A stretch of 64,000 nt of DNA, taken from contig JAIFWN010000002.1 of the NCBI GenBank assembly GCA_019658995.1, positions 29,262 to 93,261 on the forward strand, read 5' to 3'. The notes below the pieces were generated by a model. The model was given only the letters and a program-made list of their open reading frames with translations. It was not told where the DNA came from and did no database searches. This document shows positions 4,414 to 30,159 of the stretch, in pieces; within the stretch, counting starts at the first letter, position 1; every line of letters starts with the position of its first letter. The translations under genes were made by a program, and so were the position numbers. The DNA comes from Candidatus Parcubacteria bacterium. Its GTDB lineage: Bacteria; Patescibacteriota; Minisyncoccia; Phycocordibacterales; Zambryskibacteraceae.

Positions 4414-6288
4414 CTATTGTAGCACCGCTTTGATACGGCGAACTCCTACGGAAACCGCTTCTTCCTTCTGGATTTTGAATATTCCCAATTCACTCGTATT
4501 TGAGACGTGCGGCCCGCCGCAAAGCTCTTTGGAGTAAGTGCCAATTGAGTAGACAGAAACTTGATCCGGATACTTTTGGTCAAAGAAGTGGAGTGCCCCG
4601 GACTTAATAGCTTCATTTTTATCCATAGTCACATTTTGCACCGGTATAGCCTCCTTGATCTTCTTATTTACGATATCCTCAACTCTCAACTTCTCCTCAT
4701 CGGTCATTTTGCGTGGGAAGGCAAAATCGAAACGCAGCCGCTCTGGTGTGATGTTACTTCCCTCTTGCTGTACCTCTGGCCCAAGTACGTCTCTTAGCGC
4801 TTGATGCAACAGGTGTGTAGTGGTGTGATATTTAACTTCTACGTCCGAATGTCCAGCCAATCCACCTTTGAATTTCTGCTCTGCACCTGCACGAGATAGC
4901 TCTCGATGCTTTTCAATTTCTTGATTGAACTCACTTTGTAGCCTCTTATAATCTTGAGGGAAAAAATAATGCTTGTTATGTGATTTTAATTCCTCGAGTG
5001 TCATTTCGAATGGAAACCCAAATGTCTGATAGAAATCAAACAACCATTTTCCTGTGACCTCAGATGGTGGAAAATCCCACATCTGAATATCATCCGGACC
5101 ATGCACAAGGCTTACATGATGAACTTTATAAGTCTGTCCTGGTCTACCTATCTGAGCCTCAATTTTTCTATGTAAAATTTTGAGGCCCTTTTCGAGAGTT
5201 TTCCTAAATTTATGCTCTTCCTCTAAAATTACCTCTCTTATGTACTCTTCGTCACCAAAATCATAGACTCCTCTATATTTATTTGTTACCAAGTCAATTA
5301 CTTCTCCAATTGCGTGCATTTCCACACCTAATTTGTCCGCATAACGCACAGCCCTTCTTATTATGCGTCTTAATACATAACCTTTATCAGTATTCGCAGG
5401 AATTACATGATCGGCGATTATAAATACTGACGTTCGGATATGATCGGCAACTATTCTTTCGGATCTTATATCTGAGCTCTTTTTTAGTTCATCAATTTTA
5501 GACATTATTGAAATGAAGAGGTCTGTATCAAAGATGCTATCCTTCTTTTGCAAAACCATTGCTAAGCGCTCGAGACCTGCACCGGTGTCGACATTTCGAC
5601 TAGGAAGCTTCCCAACTACTTTGCCATCCTTCTTTTCATATTCCATGAAGACATCATTCCAGATCTCAACAATTTTTTGTTCATTATCAGCCTTTAGAAA
5701 TTCCTCATGAGTTAGATCACCGAGTCCCTCTGGTGTTATGTCGTAATACATTTCAGTATCTGGACCGGACGGACCATTGTCCCCAGCGCTCCACCAGTTC
5801 TTATCGGCTGGCAGGAAATAGATACGATTTTCAGGTATATATTTCTTCCATATTTCCGCAGCTTCGTTATCACGTGGTGCATTTTCGTCTCCAGCGAACA
5901 CTGTTATATAAAGCCTATTCGGATCAAGGCCGAAACCCTCTTCTTTATCAGTTAGTAATTCGTAACTCCATTTAATTGCATCTTCCTTGAAATAATCTCC
6001 GAGTGACCAGTTCCCTAGCATTTCAAAGAAGGTGTCATGGGTTTTGTCTCCAACCTCCTCAATATCCTGAGTCCTGACGCTTTTCTGCACATTAGCAAGC
6101 CTTTTACCTTTTGGATGATCTTTGCCAAGGAGATACGGGATAAGGGGCTGCATGCCGGCAGAAATAAAGAGAGTTTTATTGGTCTTCTCCGACTCATCAG
6201 GCGCAACTAACGAGGCTGAAGGGATAATGGCGTGTCCCCTCTTTTCAAAAAAAGCGAGAAATCGCTTGCGGATTTCCTGTGATTCCAT
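4414..6288 (-). CDS. alaS: alanine--tRNA ligase, short form without the C-terminal C-Ala/DHHA1 domain
   Basis: The 624-aa ORF has the class II AlaRS catalytic core (FFEMLGNWSLGDYFK, DTGAGLERL) and editing-domain motifs (HTTTHLLHQAL … CGGPHV). The protein ends directly after the editing domain. Confidence 0.9.
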   Translation of the reverse strand: MESQEIRKRFLAFFEKRGHAIIPSASLVAPDESEKTNKTLFISAGMQPLIPYLLGKDHPKGKRLANVQKSVRTQDIEEVGDKTHDTFFEMLGNWSLGDYFKEDAIKWSYELLTDKEEGFGLDPNRLYITVFAGDENAPRDNEAAEIWKKYIPENRIYFLPADKNWWSAGDNGPSGPDTEMYYDITPEGLGDLTHEEFLKADNEQKIVEIWNDVFMEYEKKDGKVVGKLPSRNVDTGAGLERLAMVLQKKDSIFDTDLFISIMSKIDELKKSSDIRSERIVADHIRTSVFIIADHVIPANTDKGYVLRRIIRRAVRYADKLGVEMHAIGEVIDLVTNKYRGVYDFGDEEYIREVILEEEHKFRKTLEKGLKILHRKIEAQIGRPGQTYKVHHVSLVHGPDDIQMWDFPPSEVTGKWLFDFYQTFGFPFEMTLEELKSHNKHYFFPQDYKRLQSEFNQEIEKHRELSRAGAEQKFKGGLAGHSDVEVKYHTTTHLLHQALRDVLGPEVQQEGSNITPERLRFDFAFPRKMTDEEKLRVEDIVNKKIKEAIPVQNVTMDKNEAIKSGALHFFDQKYPDQVSVYSIGTYSKELCGGPHVSNTSELGIFKIQKEEAVSVGVRRIKAVLQ

Positions 6289-6331
6289 GGCAAGATACTA
6301 GCAGTTTGAAGAACAAAGAAAAAGACCCGAC

Positions 6332-22846: not shown

Positions 22847-22884
22847 GTGCGTAGGCAAGACCTGCGCACTTTTCTTTTTATTTC
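22847..22884 (+). terminator. rho-independent terminator
   Basis: The sequence gtgcgtagg-caag-acctgcgcac forms the stem, followed by ttttcttttt. Confidence 0.5.
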
Positions 22885-25490
22885 CTCTTACTCTTTCCTA
22901 AAACCTTCCGCAGATACTCCCCTGTATGCGTGTCAGTATTGGCCACCTCTTCCGGCGTGCCTTTGGCTACGAGCTTCCCTCCCCCGTCGCCGCCATCCGG
23001 GCCGATATCTATCACATAGTCAGCACTTTTTATGAAGTCCAGATTATGTTCGATGACCACTACAGTATTGCCGCTCTGTACCAGCTTCTGCAGAATTTCG
23101 ATCAGCTTCTTCACATCTTCATAATGCAAGCCGATAGTCGGCTCGTCCAAGAGATAAATCGTCTTTTGCAGATGCGGACGATAGAGTTCCGAGGCGATCT
23201 TAACTCTCTGGGCCTCGCCGCCTGAGAGCGTTGTGGCGCTCTGACCGAGTTTCAAGTATCCGAGGCCCACATCATTAAGAGTTTTCAGCCTGTCATATAT
23301 GCTCGGTATGTCTTCGAAGAACCCGATTGCTTCTTCTACAGTCATCTCCAGAATGTCATAGATGGACTTCTTTTTATAGTGCACCTCGAGAGTCTCCTTC
23401 ATGAACCTTTTTCCCCTACATACATCGCAGGGTACGTAGACGGTTGGCAAGAAGTGCATCTCTACCTCAATCATGCCGTTACCCTGACATGTCTCGCATC
23501 GGCCGCCCTTGACATTGAAACTGAAGCGGTTGGCTTTCCAACCTCTGGCCCTGGCTTCTTCGGACGTGGCGAACAATTCACGGATAAATGTGAAGGCGCC
23601 TGTATATGTGGCAGGGTTACTTCTTGGAGTTCTGCCGATCGCTGACTGATCTATGAGAATTGCACGGCTCAAATACTCCGTGCCGGTAAAGCTCTGGGCA
23701 TTGTAGGTAGCCGCACTTCTGTACTTCTTCTCCAATCTTGCCTGCAGGTTTTTGTAAAGAATTTCATAAACGAAAGAGGATTTGCCTGAGCCTGATACTC
23801 CAGTGACAGCAATGAGCCGGCCGAGCGGAACATCGACGTTCATGTGTTTTATATTGAAGATCTTGCCTCCGCGTATTTGTACCATACCCTTCTCGCTTTC
23901 CCTCCTTTCCTCGGGAATTTCTATCTTTTCCTCGCCACGGAGATACGCAAGCGTGAGCGAACCCGAAGTATTTTTCTTCGCAGTCAGGAGTTCCTCTAGA
24001 TCACCGGATACCACTACCTCTCCGCCGTGTCTGCCCGCACCGGGACCGATATCTACAATGTAATCAGAGGAGTAAATAGTGTCCTCGTCGTGCTCGACCA
24101 CGATAATAGTGTTGCCGAGATCGCGGAGATCTATAAGGGTTTTAATGAGCCTTGCGTTGTCACGAGAGTGGAGACCGATAGTCGGTTCGTCCAAAACATA
24201 TAGAGCACCGACCAATCCCGAACCGAGCTGGCTAGCCAAGCGTATGCGCTGGGCCTCACCGCCGGAGAGGGTATGGGCTCGGCGGTCGAGCGAGAGATAC
24301 TCGATGCCGACATTTAGCATAAACTCGAGCCTCGCGCTTATCTCTTTGGTCACGACGCTTGAAATTCCCTTCTCTCTTGCAGTCAGCCTTAATTTCTTGA
24401 AGAATTCATCGCACTCTTTGATGGAGAGAGCTGTAATCTCGACAATGTTCTTGCCGCCGACCAAAACTTTCAAAGCCTCTTCGCGCAGTCTCTGGCCCTT
24501 GCACTTCGGACACGGCTCATGGCTGAAGAAATACTTCGTACCCAGACCATTGCACTCCGGACAGGCTCCGTAAGGCGAGTTGAATGAGAAGAGTCTCGGT
24601 TCGATCTCCGGGAAGGAGAAACCGTCGAAGGGACACGACCACTTGGCAGACATTAGAAACTCTTCCGGATTTTCCTGCTTATTGGCCATATCCCTGAATC
24701 GCAGGACTACAAGACCCTCGGACTCGTGGATAGCCTTCTCTATAGATTCAGAAAGCCGCTCCTCAGCGCTCTTTGGATCGGTTTTAAATTCATTTAGGCT
24801 GACGGCGTCCACAAGTACCGATATGGAATGCTGTTTGGTCTTCGTAAGCTCTATGCGCTCGCGTAAGTTCTTCCTCACGTTGTCTACCAGGACTTCGCCG
24901 TAGCCCTTGCCCAAGAGATCATAGAGAAGCTGGTAGTACTCGCCCTTCCTGCCGCGTACAATGGGAGAGAATATTTCGGCATATACTGGCAGATCGATCT
25001 TCTTGCCCTTAGGCATAGTGGCCATCTTCTCCCCGATTTTGGCCAATATAAAATTCTTGATCTCTTCATTAGACAGTTTCTGAATCTCGCGGCCGCAGAC
25101 AAGGCAGTGCGGGCGGCCGATACGTGCGTATAGAATACGCAGATAATCATAAATCTCGGTGATGGTAGCCACCGTCGAGCGAGGGTTATTGGAGCGTGAC
25201 TTCTGGTCAATCGAGATAGCTGGCGAGAGGCCGATAATCTCATCGACATCGGGCTTTTGCATCTGATGCAAGAACTGGCGGGCATATGAGGAGAGACTTT
25301 CAACGTAGCGCCTCTGACCCTCGGCAAAGATAGTATCGAAGGCGAGCGATGATTTGCCCGATCCGGAAAGACCGGTGAAAACCACCATTTTACCTCGCGG
25401 CATCTCAACCGTAATGTTCTTAAGGTTGTGCGTCCTGGCGCCCTTCACTATGATTTTCTCCTCTGAGAGGTTCTTTTTGTCTTTTGACAT
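22878..25490 (-). CDS. uvrA: excinuclease ABC subunit A
   Basis: The 870-aa ORF has two ABC ATPase modules ([21 protein letters not shown]), zinc-finger Cys motifs and LSGGE signatures. Confidence 0.95.
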
Positions 25491-25548: not shown

Positions 25549-27558
25549 CTACTCTTTTCCTGGCTTTTTCATCCTAGCTTCAAGGGCACGGATTTCATCT
25601 CGAAGGATCGCGGCGGACTCGAAATCGAGGTCATGCACGGCTTCTTCCATCTCTTTCATTTTCGACTTTATCAGTTTCTTCGGATTCTTTTTGAAAAATT
25701 CTTCATCGGTTGCCAGGAGTATGTCCACCGCCTGGTGATGCTCACGCTCGAGGGTGTCGGTAATGTCTTTAATTTTTTTAAGTATAGTCTTCGGAGTAAT
25801 CCCATGCTTTTTGTTGTACTCGAGCTGTATCTTTCTCCTGCGATTGGTCTCTCCTATAGCCCTCTCAATAGAGCCTGTGACATTGTCCGCATACAGGTAA
25901 ACCCGGCCCTCGATGTTACGGGCTGCGCGGCCAATGATCTGGATAAGCGAAGTCTCAGAGCGCAAGAATCCTTCCTTATCGGCATCGAGAATACCGATAA
26001 ACATTACCTCAGGTAGGTCGAGTCCTTCGCGTAGGAGATTCACCCCCACCAGCACATCGAACTCGCCACGGCGAAACTGGGTAAGAATCTCGATGCGCTC
26101 TATGGTCTTGATATCGCTGTGAAGGTAAGCGGCCTTGATCTTCCTCTCTTTGAGGTATTCCGAGAGATCTTCGGCCATGCGCTTGGTGAGGGTCGTTGCA
26201 ATGGCCCGGCCGCCTTTGGCAATGACCTTCTCGGCCTCTTCGATGAAGTCAAAAATCTGGCCTCTATAATTTCCCTTTTCCTGTATCGGACGCACAGTCA
26301 CCTCGGGATCAATGAGACCTGTAGGCCGGATGACTTGTTCTACAACTTTTCCGGATTTCTCTTTCTCGAATTTGCCCGGTGTAGCTGAAGTGAAAATAAT
26401 TTGATTCGTCCTCTCCAGGAATTCCTCAAATCTAAGTGGTCTGTTGTCGAGTGCGCTAGGCAATCTGAAGCCGTGCTCGATAAGCGTCTCCTTGCGTGAC
26501 TTATCACCGGCATACATGCCTCCGATCTGCGATACTGTCACATGAGACTCATCTATGACAGTCAGAAAATCCTTTGGGAAATACGAGAGCAAGGTATCAG
26601 GAGCTTCTCCGGGTTTACGACCGCTGAAGTGGCGTGAATAATTCTCTATACCATTCGTGTATCCGATTTCGCGGATGAGGGCAAGATCGTAAGTAGTTCT
26701 CCTCTTTAATCTCTCTGCTTCCAAAATTTTCCCTCCTTTCTTCAGCTCCTCAAGCCTGTCTTCCAATTCACTCTTAATACTCTGAAGCGCCCTCTTTGCC
26801 TGATCATCCTGGGTGATGAAGTGTTTGGCCGGGAATATGAAGTAGTTCTCGGGCTCGGAAACGATTGTGCGGGAGGTTGCATCAATGCGCTTGATAGCGG
26901 CGATCCGGCCCTCCTCAATTTCAATCCTATAAATCATCCTCTCCCCAGTGGGCATAATCTCAATGGCGTTGCCAAGGGCTCGAAATTGCCCGGGCTTCAC
27001 ATCGAGACTGGTACGGGAGAAGTGAATGCGTATGAGTTCGCGGATAAAGTCAGCACGGCTGATATCCTGACCAACTTTCACCTTGATATTTACCTTTTCA
27101 TACTCCTCGGGAGAGCCAAGACCGTATATGCAGGAAACAGAGGCTACGATAATCACATCTTTGCGTGTCAGGAGAGCCTGAGTCGAGGCGTGACGAAGAC
27201 GATCTATTTCCTCATTTATCATGGCTTCTTTCTCTATATAAGTATCTGTCACCGGCATGTAAGCCTCCGGCTGGTAATAGTCGTAATAGGAGACGAAGTA
27301 GTGCACGGCGTTCTCAGGGAAAAACTCTCTATACTCCTGGGCAAGCTGGGCTGCCAAGGTCTTGTTGTGCGCAATGACAAGGGTGGGCTTGCCAATGTTT
27401 TGTATGACATTAGCCGCGGTGAAAGTCTTGCCCGAGCCGGTAACACCCAGAAGGGTCTGGAATTTGTGACCCTCCTTGATGCCTTCTGTGAGCTCCTTGA
27501 TAGCTTTGGGCTGATCACCCGCCGGCTCCCACTCCTTCTTAATCTTAAAAACTGACAT
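25549..27558 (-). CDS. uvrB: excinuclease ABC subunit B
   Basis: The 669-aa ORF has a GVTGSGKT Walker A motif, a helicase core and a C-terminal UVR domain (…LRDEIRALEARM…). Confidence 0.95.
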   Translation of the reverse strand: MSVFKIKKEWEPAGDQPKAIKELTEGIKEGHKFQTLLGVTGSGKTFTAANVIQNIGKPTLVIAHNKTLAAQLAQEYREFFPENAVHYFVSYYDYYQPEAYMPVTDTYIEKEAMINEEIDRLRHASTQALLTRKDVIIVASVSCIYGLGSPEEYEKVNIKVKVGQDISRADFIRELIRIHFSRTSLDVKPGQFRALGNAIEIMPTGERMIYRIEIEEGRIAAIKRIDATSRTIVSEPENYFIFPAKHFITQDDQAKRALQSIKSELEDRLEELKKGGKILEAERLKRRTTYDLALIREIGYTNGIENYSRHFSGRKPGEAPDTLLSYFPKDFLTVIDESHVTVSQIGGMYAGDKSRKETLIEHGFRLPSALDNRPLRFEEFLERTNQIIFTSATPGKFEKEKSGKVVEQVIRPTGLIDPEVTVRPIQEKGNYRGQIFDFIEEAEKVIAKGGRAIATTLTKRMAEDLSEYLKERKIKAAYLHSDIKTIERIEILTQFRRGEFDVLVGVNLLREGLDLPEVMFIGILDADKEGFLRSETSLIQIIGRAARNIEGRVYLYADNVTGSIERAIGETNRRRKIQLEYNKKHGITPKTILKKIKDITDTLEREHHQAVDILLATDEEFFKKNPKKLIKSKMKEMEEAVHDLDFESAAILRDEIRALEARMKKPGKE

Positions 27559-27579
27559 CTCCGTAGTATAAACTTTTGC

Positions 27580-27611
27580 TTCAGTGAAAACAAAAAAGCC
27601 CCTTAGGGGCT
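27580..27611 (-). terminator. rho-independent terminator of the RT gene
   Basis: A 6-bp hairpin (agcccc-tta-ggggct) overlaps the RT stop codon. On the minus strand it is followed by UUUUUUGUUUU. Confidence 0.6.
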
Positions 27612-28599
27612 AGAATGGAACATCATCGTCGTCATCGAGAGAGCCCCAAGGATCGCCAGTCTGAATGCCAATGGGAGCCCTTCCTTGTGGTGGCGGAATG
27701 AAGGGCTTCTTCCGTGTCTGGTGCCGCAACTGTGCATACTCGGAGAAAACCTTGGTCTCGAGCCTATTGCGCGGTCTAGAAGCATCGGTAGAGGCTTGCA
27801 AGAGCCCGATCATGCCATGAACTCTCTGGAGCAGTTTGGGATCCTCCGAGCGCTCCGCTACATGCATGAGACCGCGGATTTTGTACAGATACCAGCGCGG
27901 CAGATACACCCGGCCGCCGTATTCAAGCCCGATACCGTTGATCTCAATACGATGCTTCTTGAGATCGAGGACTCGGCTCTTGTGGTGGCCGATACGTAAT
28001 CCAGACAGCGATATGAGCTCGCGGATCTTCTCCCTCTTGCGTGCTCCGATCACCTGTTTTGATGAGAACGTCAGATCGTCAAGATACCGACTGTAGGTAA
28101 CCTCATGACGTAGGCAATACTCGCGCATTTGCCCATCCATAAGAACAGCACAATAGATGTTGAAGAGATCCGGAGAGCTCGGTGAACCGGTAATGAGCCC
28201 TCCCTGCTCGGTCATGCAGAACTGACGGAGAAAGGCGTACACCTCAGATTCTCTGACCTGAGTGTCCAGACCGGCGAGCACTGCGGCTAGCCGGTGGCTA
28301 TCCACAGAGTCGAAGGCGCTAGAGATATCCGTCAAATAGAAATATCGGTTGTGCCGATGCCTCAGTACATTGCGCAGTGCACTACCGCCTGGCTTCGAGG
28401 CAGCAGAGGTGAGATCCACCGCCTTAATACGCCGCAAATTGATCACAAGCCGATCGTGCAGGTACTTCATCGCCTCGTTCGGCGTGTGCAATGTTCTCAT
28501 CCTGGAGGTACGTCCAAGAGGATTGACATCGCGCTTCTGCCAGGCCTTGAACTCGGCCTTCGTGCCTGATCGAGGCAGATCGATGCCGTCAAAGATCAT
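27610..28599 (-). CDS. reverse transcriptase, standalone (retron-like or unclassified RT), with an acidic DDDDDVPF C-terminus
   Basis: The protein has an RT finger/palm region …YFYLTDISSAFDSV (motif A-like), ITGSPSSPDLFNIYC (motif B, QGxxxSP type) and YSRYLDDLTFS (YxDD). A post-palm LRIGHHKSRV…RIEINGIGL segment resembles the retron thumb/VTG region. A strong AAGGAGG SD lies 4 nt before the ATG. Confidence 0.85.
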   Translation of the reverse strand: MIFDGIDLPRSGTKAEFKAWQKRDVNPLGRTSRMRTLHTPNEAMKYLHDRLVINLRRIKAVDLTSAASKPGGSALRNVLRHRHNRYFYLTDISSAFDSVDSHRLAAVLAGLDTQVRESEVYAFLRQFCMTEQGGLITGSPSSPDLFNIYCAVLMDGQMREYCLRHEVTYSRYLDDLTFSSKQVIGARKREKIRELISLSGLRIGHHKSRVLDLKKHRIEINGIGLEYGGRVYLPRWYLYKIRGLMHVAERSEDPKLLQRVHGMIGLLQASTDASRPRNRLETKVFSEYAQLRHQTRKKPFIPPPQGRAPIGIQTGDPWGSLDDDDDVPF

Positions 28600-28685
28600 G
28601 CATCCTCCTTATGTGTCTAGCGCCATGCTATCGCGCCACTATGTCATTTGCAAGAAAAATCCCGCAAAGCGGGGTGTGGCTCGGG

Positions 28686-28929
28686 GGTTCTGGGAGATGA
28701 AGCTCTTATGCGGTTTCCCTAGTACCGGTGTGAACCGATACATATCGAGAAAGAGGATCGGGTGCACGTTCTCCGTCTTCGGGAGAAGAGGAGAGCGCGA
28801 ACGCTCGGGGAGATCGCCTTGAGGCAATTCCCTCTTCGCTGTGAATACAGCGAACGTGATGGTTGAACATGTGTGGACACCAGTACTACTCTACCTTCAA
28901 ACAAACACTGCACCTGCTCTCCCAGAACC
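28686..28929 (-). ncRNA. candidate structured ncRNA upstream of the RT (retron msr/msd-like), bounded by a 12-bp perfect inverted repeat
   Basis: The sequence ggttctgggaga at 28686-28697 has its exact reverse complement at 28918-28929. The interior is non-coding and rich in short perfect hairpins, for example uucgcugu-auuc-acagcgaa and gagcg-uucg-cgcuc. Confidence 0.35.
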
Positions 28930-28941
28930 GCATATCTTGGT

Positions 28942-30159
<1,218 letters not shown>

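Follow-up and report, generated by a model that had tools for sequence, protein, structure and literature searches.

The DNA analysed here (the window) is a 64-kb stretch of a Candidatus Parcubacteria genome (assembly GCA_019658995.1, contig JAIFWN010000002.1, positions 29,262–93,261). It contains a gene for a reverse transcriptase (RT), located between tgt and uvrB and preceded by a region that encodes a structured non-coding RNA (ncRNA). The gaps flanking the RT gene measure 342 nt on the tgt side and 51 nt on the uvrB side (Table 1). An earlier note on this DNA had described a 329-aa RT with its own AAGGAGG sequence and its own terminator, a stop codon about 50 nt from uvrB and 342 nt of non-coding DNA upstream. 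All of these features were found in place, including a hairpin and T-run after the stop codon. The RT and its RNA constitute a real and well-supported module that lacks an effector, has a pseudoknotted RNA, occurs almost only in bacteria of the candidate phyla radiation (CPR) and is stably positioned.

In Pfam, the window RT matches RVT_1 alone. All top matches among the PADLOC models are retron RTs, led by RT_VI (3.5e-31, 106 bits) and RT_II-A (2.3e-30, 104 bits), and the best NCBIfam match is retron_St85_RT (1.5e-31, 110 bits with a cut-off of 235). The group II RT/maturase model TIGR04416 gives 1e-7 (31 bits, cut-off 300). Models of the DRT defence RTs score 4.6e-7 (Drt2, 29.4 bits, cut-off 390), 21 bits (Drt3a, cut-off 200) and 13 bits (Drt5, cut-off 550). 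A profile of 42 family members identifies Ec83 first in the PDB (1.7e-31), followed by Ec86, Ec78, Ec67, Kva2 and Eco8, compared with 5.7e-10 for group II and 8e-9 for Drt2. Retron models and structures thus outscore group II and DRT by more than 20 orders of magnitude. The AlphaFold (AF2) model of the window RT has a pLDDT of 88.7 and is confident except for the disordered residues 311–329. When this model was compared with the PDB by Foldseek, the top 17 hits were retron RTs with query TM-scores of 0.56–0.70. DRT2 and DRT9 are also present in the list, and the structures from group II introns and diversity-generating retroelements (DGRs) rank under all retron RTs. The retron-like nature attributed to the RT in the earlier note is therefore supported by both the profile and the structure comparisons.

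The catalytic residues of the window RT are D91 and Y172-L-D174-D175. Residues H81, D91, Y172, D174, D175 and G222 are invariant across the family. Two signatures characterize retron RTs, region X (NAXXH, between RT2 and RT3, with H most conserved) and region Y (VTG in RT7, with G most conserved) (PMC7736814). Region X of the window RT is NVLRH (residues 77–81, N77 at least 90% conserved); the family motif NVxRH aligns with NAKIH of Ec83, with V replacing A. Region Y is ING, aligned to VTG of Ec83, and only the glycine (G222) is retained. The YLDD motif had been called atypical. It does differ from the canonical YADD but is the consensus of the whole family and not peculiar to the window RT.

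A word-indexed search yielded 116 relatives of ~300 aa, and those with a name are Parcubacteria/Patescibacteria. When 1.84 billion cluster representatives were searched exhaustively, 226 clusters passed E ≤ 1e-30; clustered at 50% identity, the family thus has 226 clusters or more. Of the 35 best loci in species-representative genomes, nearly all derive from CPR lineages (Paceibacterota, Saccharibacteria, Wildermuth-, Kerfeld-, Vogel-, Harrison-, Campbell-, Zambryski- and Andersenbacteria), and two loci (L007 and L009) are labelled uncultured Gammaproteobacteria. Metagenomes supplied 80 further loci. An exact-sequence search for the window RT in a contig index returned no match.

The 42 family members match the models of all retron types about equally, with ~110 bits or less. 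Control retron RTs from the same genome scan reach 220–390 bits on their own type and 150–200 bits on other types. Thus, the family is an outlying retron-like clade. No type-specific model among types I–XIII (PADLOC/Mestre 2020, including VI and II-A) fits. Judged by sequence and predicted fold, the RT is of the retron type and belongs to an outlying clade that is closest to Ec83, Ec86 and Ec78. The clade consists of undescribed, deep-branching retron RTs that are found almost only in CPR/Patescibacteria. The literature searched contained no retrons in CPR, Patescibacteria, Saccharibacteria or Parcubacteria, no effector-less retrons and no account of this family, a limited search that leaves novelty unproven.

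The ncRNA of the window is closed by a perfect 12-bp inverted repeat, GGTTCTGGGAGA/TCTCCCAGAACC, whose arms correspond to a1 and a2. The repeat lies where it had been reported (28918–28929/28686–28697). The minus-strand RNA 28680–28941 has a folding energy of −98.9 kcal/mol, compared with −75.8 ± 4.8 kcal/mol for 200 shuffled sequences, none of which was as good (z = −4.78). The base directly after the 5′ arm is a G, as had been pointed out; this agreement concerns the identity of the base only. A G is present at the a1 boundary in all three closest full-length RNAs (window, L162 and L164). The tandem hairpins H1–H2 of the window match the family covariance model described below with 37 bits (E = 7.6e-5).

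Long conserved blocks are present in the upstream gap of the four closest loci. When the full structure is applied to these four RNAs, 83.8% of cells are paired and 18 pairs are compensatory, compared with 37–54% and at most 7 in slid controls. The stem UUCUCC/GGAGAA of the msd-like region is 87.5% paired, with 4 of 6 pairs compensatory. The UUCG stem mentioned in the earlier note is present but specific to the window; even among the closest relatives conservation is lacking (45% of cells paired). In this sub-clade the helix S2, formed by S2a and S2b, is short (CUCG/CGAG in the window; CUCAG/CUGAG, CUCGG/CCGAG and UCUCG/CGAGA in relatives). The linker is longer and contains the hairpin H3 and an invariant GGGAAACCGCA block, which is complementary to the 5′ flank of a1. 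The resulting helix P0 is 96% paired, and at one position the window, L162 and L164 each have a different Watson-Crick pair. P0 is a pairing alternative to a1/a2 or, alternatively, a pseudoknot. A 16-nt block, UAGUACUGGUGUCCAC, in the spacer between a1 and H1 (28873–28888, minus strand) is identical in the window and L164, whose RTs are ~50% identical; no pairing partner of this block was identified.

Table 1. Genes, transcription signals and ncRNA elements at the RT locus (window coordinates).
Feature	Position	Strand	Remarks
P0, 5′ strand, UAUGCGGUU	28926–28934	minus	complementary to 28707–28715 (9 bp); overlaps a1 by 4 nt
a1, 5′ arm of closing repeat, GGUUCUGGGAGA	28918–28929	minus	
First unpaired G after a1	28917	minus	candidate priming (branching) G
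H1–H2, msr-like tandem hairpins	28806–28858	minus	H1 28835–28854; H2 28808–28832; most conserved RNA part
msd-like region	28769–28806	minus	UUCG hairpin 28793–28806; CU-rich tract 28781–28795; stem UUCUCC/GGAGAA 28769–28787
S2a, CUCG	28746–28749	minus	pairs with S2b 3′ of a2
H3, hairpin UAUCGGU-UCAC-ACCGGUA	28723–28740	minus	4/7 pairs with compensatory changes
Invariant block, GGGAAACCGCAUA	28707–28719	minus	includes P0 3′ strand
a2, 3′ arm of closing repeat, UCUCCCAGAACC	28686–28697	minus	
S2b, CGAG	28680–28683	minus	just 3′ of a2; S2a/S2b helix crosses a1/a2 (pseudoknot)
Terminator-like hairpin CCCGC-UUU-GCGGG and U-run	28652–28673	minus	between ncRNA and RT gene; hairpin 28673–28661
RT ORF, 329 aa	27610–28599	minus	ATG start; Shine-Dalgarno AAGGAGG 28604–28610
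Terminator-like hairpin and T-run	27587–27611	minus	after RT stop; hairpin 27611–27597
tgt	28942–30159	minus	upstream of RT
uvrB	25549–27558	minus	downstream of RT
uvrA	22878–25490	minus	downstream of RT; same strand as uvrB/tgt

Across the family the RNA has a constant order of elements: a1, a spacer of ~40 nt, H1–H2, a long and variable msd-like hairpin, a UCAGCG box, a linker of 14–60 nt, a2 and a CGCUGA box. The H1–H2 fold recurs in 26 of 26 loci that were folded singly. MAFFT and RNAalifold recovered H1 alone from the H1–H2 seed because H2 was misaligned. The structure was therefore supplied, a covariance model of the 53-nt H1–H2 module (R1) was built and the sequences were realigned to it. 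A search of 748 kb with R1 gave 64 matches at E < 1, all 64 on the strand of the RT. In 63 sequences, compensatory changes occur at 18 of 18 pairs, with 87.8% of cells paired. For covariation the alignment scores 0.743, compared with 0.295 for shuffled alignments (0 of 500 reach 0.743) and at most 0.244 for slid controls. The pairing and compensatory counts lean towards the structure, since the alignment was fitted to R1; neither the single-sequence folds nor the strand bias depends on this alignment. As a negative control for R1, seven loci whose RT is fused to a zinc ribbon (57 kb) were searched on both strands with filters off, and the best match had 16 bits.

A stem resembling a1/a2 encloses H1–H2. 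Of 55 anchors, 27 have a stem better than every one of 40 shuffles and 38 a stem better than at least 39 of them. The stems comprise 10–18 bp and are found at a constant position in 43 family RNAs. The distance from the end of a1 to H1 has a median of 41 nt and the a1–a2 span is 168–376 nt. The sequences of the arms vary between loci while their complementarity is kept. The closing repeat proposed for the window thus has counterparts in homologous loci.

The hairpin between H2 and a2 ranges in length from 36 to 257 nt and its base stem covaries (GGUUCGGG/CCCGAACC, AAGGUCAG/CUGACCUU and AAGGUUACGCU/AGCGUAAUCUU). This variable hairpin is the msd-like part of the RNA. A CU-rich tract of 10–20 nt follows H2 on the 5′ strand of this msd-like hairpin in most members (e.g. 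L001, L084, L086, L087 and L095), often after a GGUUCG motif. The tract could be a stop site of the RT or a segment that stays hybridised. On the 3′ side of the msd-like hairpin, the box (CC)UCAGCG(G) is conserved and separated from a2 by 14–35 nt of linker (more in the window's sub-clade), and (C)CGCUGA(GG) directly follows a2 in 34 of 43 RNAs. Compensatory variants of this S2 pairing are UCAAUGG/UCAUUGA, UCAACG/CGUUGA, CCCCAAU/AUUGGGG and CUCAGCU/AGCUGAG. The UCAGCG/CGCUGA helix crosses a1/a2 and therefore forms a pseudoknot, which could stack on a1/a2.

The RNA and the RT gene are on the same strand, about 15–110 nt apart. In most loci a2 ends 16–50 nt before the RT start codon, so that RNA and RT are probably co-transcribed. 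H1–H2 is located downstream of the RT in L003, L008, L010, L026, L098, L108, L112, L120, L123, L126, L127, L128 and L141. Twelve of these loci have an a1/a2 stem that passes the shuffle filter, with a1 starting 13–392 nt after the RT stop. Tandem ncRNA copies precede a single RT in L100 (84–342 and 457–654) and L002 (5358–5552 and 5665–5918); both copies are complete and possess separate a1/a2 stems and CGCUGA boxes. L004 and L009 also contain a second H1–H2 copy, but with an a1/a2 stem no better than chance.

The msr of retrons is represented by a family in Rfam. Rfam searches gave nothing meaningful at E up to 10 in 27000–29500, nothing at gathering score in the whole window and, among 20 family loci, no match with E up to 0.1. 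By a working definition, a retron ncRNA has an a1/a2 repeat of more than 8 bp, a G near its start and several hairpins beside a retron RT (PMC10849725). The window ncRNA, with its 12-bp repeat, several hairpins and adjacent retron-type RT, has this layout. The upstream region is a genuine structured ncRNA that is co-conserved with the RT. The arrangement of msr–msd followed by RT that the earlier note had recognized is thus upheld by the a1/a2-like repeat, the covariation of H1–H2 and this co-conservation.

The terminator-like hairpin between the ncRNA and the RT gene has equivalents in the relatives L161 and L164 and suggests that more of the RNA than of the RT mRNA is produced. A scan for sigma-70 consensus promoters gave no match at threshold. 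The window RNA starts at most 8 nt from the tgt stop codon; accordingly, either it is transcribed from a promoter within tgt or it is released from the tgt transcript by processing.

In the three closest relatives (RTs 60%, 58% and 49–53% identical to the window RT) the order tgt, non-coding gap, RT, uvrB is kept. On contigs that extend far enough, uvrA and uvrC come next downstream; in L162 and L164, tgt is preceded by mreB. Synteny at 49–60% RT identity indicates that the element is old at this position, contrary to the recent insertion that had been suggested. As a functional partner uvrB was rejected, because it is adjacent only in the window's own sub-clade and the L123 neighbour that clusters with uvrB is RecG. 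Elsewhere, the module directly adjoins RNase P RNA in L083 (3130–3522) and tRNA genes in L120 (218–291), L127 (1495–1566) and L118 (1211–1284). In the 268-kb contig L166, ~1.4 kb downstream of the RT (4906–6331) contain no called gene.

Residues ~300–329 of the window RT (27610–27700) comprise a disordered Pro/Gly-rich linker followed by ...GSLDDDDDVPF. The conserved C-terminal tip of SSB, the bacterial protein that binds single-stranded DNA, reads ...DFDDDIPF in E. coli and ...DDDLPF in B. subtilis. As a sequence, the RT tail DDDDDVPF closely resembles this tip. It may mimic the SSB tip and recruit SSB-binding enzymes. Tails of other members are ...DSDLDDLPF (the syntenic relative L164), ...TDDLNF (L018) and ...DDRDSSPF (L157), and most family members have a basic C-terminal tail.

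In L030, L032, L035, L139, L144, L153 and L157 the RT is fused C-terminally to a DnaG-type CHC2 zinc ribbon (ORFs of 398–427 aa). The ribbon was identified as PF01807 with 86–106 bits in the four tested (L030, L032, L144 and L157). No Toprim or other catalytic domain was found in the zinc-ribbon RTs. These loci have an a1/a2-like repeat upstream, yet no H1–H2 match; their ncRNA, if any, carries another msr module.

Retrons are seen today as three-part defence systems similar to toxin-antitoxin systems, and they are mined for genome-editing tools. A partner gene was sought by clustering 669 neighbouring ORFs from 117 loci (up to four per side of the RT, ORFs of at least 50 aa, blastp 1e-6). No cluster occurs in more than 8 of the 117 loci; among the largest clusters are those of generic ABC ATPases, of the uvrB/RecG helicases, of an amino-acid permease and of tgt. 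No recurring Cro/C1 HTH partner is present among these neighbours. Gene calls and Pfam searches for four more members gave LeuRS, TatD and MetRS; PRTase, SmpB and FtsH; a XerC-like recombinase and SpoU; and FtsK and RecA. The same members have a gene-free gap of 265–580 nt upstream of the RT. The gene-called contexts contain housekeeping neighbours only and no unassigned conserved small ORF. Most family RTs have ~300 aa and RVT_1 only. No effector gene or domain is conserved next to the RT, and the standalone character claimed for the window element extends to the 117 loci.

The most serious alternative is nevertheless a classical tripartite retron, in which RT and multicopy single-stranded DNA (msDNA) serve both as an antitoxin and as a sensor, like those of Ec86, Sen2 or Eco8, and whose effector is encoded elsewhere or is a small or divergent protein that was missed. 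All characterised retrons require an effector (PMC7736814; PMC12916289), and the thresholds of the clustering could miss very small or fast-evolving partners. A PRTase gene is located near the RT in L166, an RNase H is nearby in a few loci, and the patchy distribution over CPR lineages is usual for defence genes. On the other hand, the effectors known so far are nearly always adjacent or fused (PMC7736814), whereas no partner recurs here and the window RT is wedged between its neighbours, with only the 51 nt left towards uvrB. This alternative is considered unlikely.

The earlier note had also regarded the locus as compatible with DRT2/DRT9. In such a UG-type defence RT the RNA would be the template for rolling-circle or homopolymeric cDNA (a 'never-ending' ORF) and there would be no priming from a 2′-OH branch. 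DRT2 (UG2) is likewise a standalone RT with a structured ncRNA upstream and no further protein; the closing stem of the RNA at the present loci, which would join the template ends, the conserved CU-rich tract after H2 in many members and the presence of both systems in the Foldseek list point the same way. Both the Drt2 score of the window RT and the PDB profile place the RT in another family. Furthermore, stop-free frames across the a1–a2 interior occur in 18 of 258 cases, about the chance rate, so that the RNA lacks a conserved stop-free frame; the would-be template is very variable in length and sequence, and the layout of the RNA is retron-like. The DRT reading is thus highly improbable and the proposed compatibility was abandoned.

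It is just as improbable that the RNA is a cis-regulatory leader or stability element of the RT mRNA which is not reverse-transcribed, with the RT using other templates. The short distance between a2 and the RT start in most loci would suit a leader. However, the RNA follows the RT in 12 loci and is therefore not simply a leader. Tandem copies occur in some loci, a terminator-like hairpin parts the RNA from the RT gene in the window and two relatives, and the architecture fits that of retron ncRNAs (PMC10849725). Finally, it is hardly conceivable that the module is related to, or left over from, a group II intron or DGR: DGRs represent ~80% of CPR RTs (PMC8632793) and RVT_1 is common to all these classes, but the TIGR04416 score is far below its cut-off, the structures rank under all retron RTs, no Rfam intron match was found in the window or the 20 family loci, and DGR is disfavoured because no second copy of the RNA region, as expected for a template/variable repeat, was found in the 64 kb at word size 7. 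The DRT2, DGR and group II readings were rejected on these grounds, that is, RT scores, chance-level stop-free frames, lack of a repeat copy and lack of an Rfam match. The CPR DGRs share the host group and have an RT with an associated RNA (the template), but unlike them the present family has neither paired template and variable repeats nor an accessory gene resembling Avd, and its RT is far closer to retron RTs.

Most of the evidence points to a two-component retron variant, consisting of the RT and a cognate msr–msd-like ncRNA without a linked effector, and we regard this as the likely identity of the module. By analogy to characterised retrons, it probably makes msDNA. H1–H2 would be bound by the RT, and the a1/a2 duplex would bring the boundary G close to the template base that immediately precedes a2 on the 5′ side. 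The RT would then prime from the 2′-OH of this G (G28917 in the window) and copy the linker together with the UCAGCG box and the msd hairpin, halting before H2. For the window, this would yield a branched msDNA about 100 nt in length. The UCAGCG/CGCUGA helix, which could stack on a1/a2 (together with P0 in the window's sub-clade), probably fixes the geometry of initiation. Alternatively, this helix and P0 may act as a switch that is undone while the template is copied.

The module agrees with bacterial retrons (Eco1/Ec86 of type II-A, Ec83/Ec78 of type I-A, and type VI) in many respects. These have the closest RT sequences and folds, share N..H of region X and ..G of region Y and have RTs of ~300 aa. 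The ncRNA is adjacent and on the same strand, with an a1/a2 repeat of more than 8 bp, short conserved hairpins by a1 and then a long variable hairpin. In the window, the base at the a1 boundary is a G.

Several points weigh against the assignment as a retron variant. The RT is further from each retron type than the types are from one another (at most ~110 bits on the RT models of types I–XIII, compared with 150–390 bits for ordinary retron RTs over all types and 220–390 bits for true members of a type), so that the mechanistic analogy may fail. YLDD, NVxRH and ING depart from the canonical YADD, NAXXH and VTG. The extra conserved UCAGCG/CGCUGA helix across a1/a2 has no counterpart in the retron RNA layout as given in PMC7736814 and PMC10849725. 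The boundary G is not uniform across the family, and a G within ~2 nt of the boundary is expected by chance. The priming and templating steps are carried over from characterised retrons. It is also possible that an effector is located elsewhere in the genome, as the view here comprises 64 kb and short contigs. Further differences from bacterial retrons are the lack of an effector gene or domain, the CPR hosts and the setting, which is syntenic and among housekeeping genes and not a defence island. Retron-Eco2 (Ec67) has been called a 'minimal retron', and its 596-aa protein combines an RT with a fused Toprim nuclease effector (PMC12916289). The CPR module resembles it in combining a single protein with an ncRNA; its members, on the other hand, are mostly bare RTs of ~300 aa, and one sub-clade has a DnaG-type zinc ribbon only.

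In known retrons a toxin is guarded and proteins of phages are sensed; Eco8, for instance, senses phage SSB via msDNA (PMC13402713). For the proposed two-component retron of the window and its relatives, the function most likely resides in the RT-msDNA complex as such (as a sensor, a decoy or a platform of single-stranded DNA), which would not be the antitoxin of a linked toxin. A more speculative and rather doubtful extension is a toxin-free retron lineage, in which the RT-msDNA particle would either belong to the DNA metabolism of the host and be inherited stably, or act by itself as a sensor or decoy for phages; its ties to the replication and repair machinery would be C-terminal add-ons. 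These would be the SSB-tip mimic (DDDDDVPF, or DSDLDDLPF in L164), which might recruit RNase H, exonucleases or PriA, and the DnaG zinc ribbon in the other sub-clade. If true, this lineage would be the first retron not acting by abortive infection through a linked effector.

With this family, a retron-type RT joins the RTs of CPR bacteria, among which DGRs have been reported as dominant. Its compact RTs of ~300 aa with defined cognate RNAs are candidates for DNA-writing tools. It shows that the core of RT and ncRNA can persist alone in some of the smallest bacterial genomes, among housekeeping genes and with its position kept over long evolutionary distances. The family thereby bears on what msDNA does by itself and on the origin of retrons, in which the core may have come first and effectors may have been recruited later.

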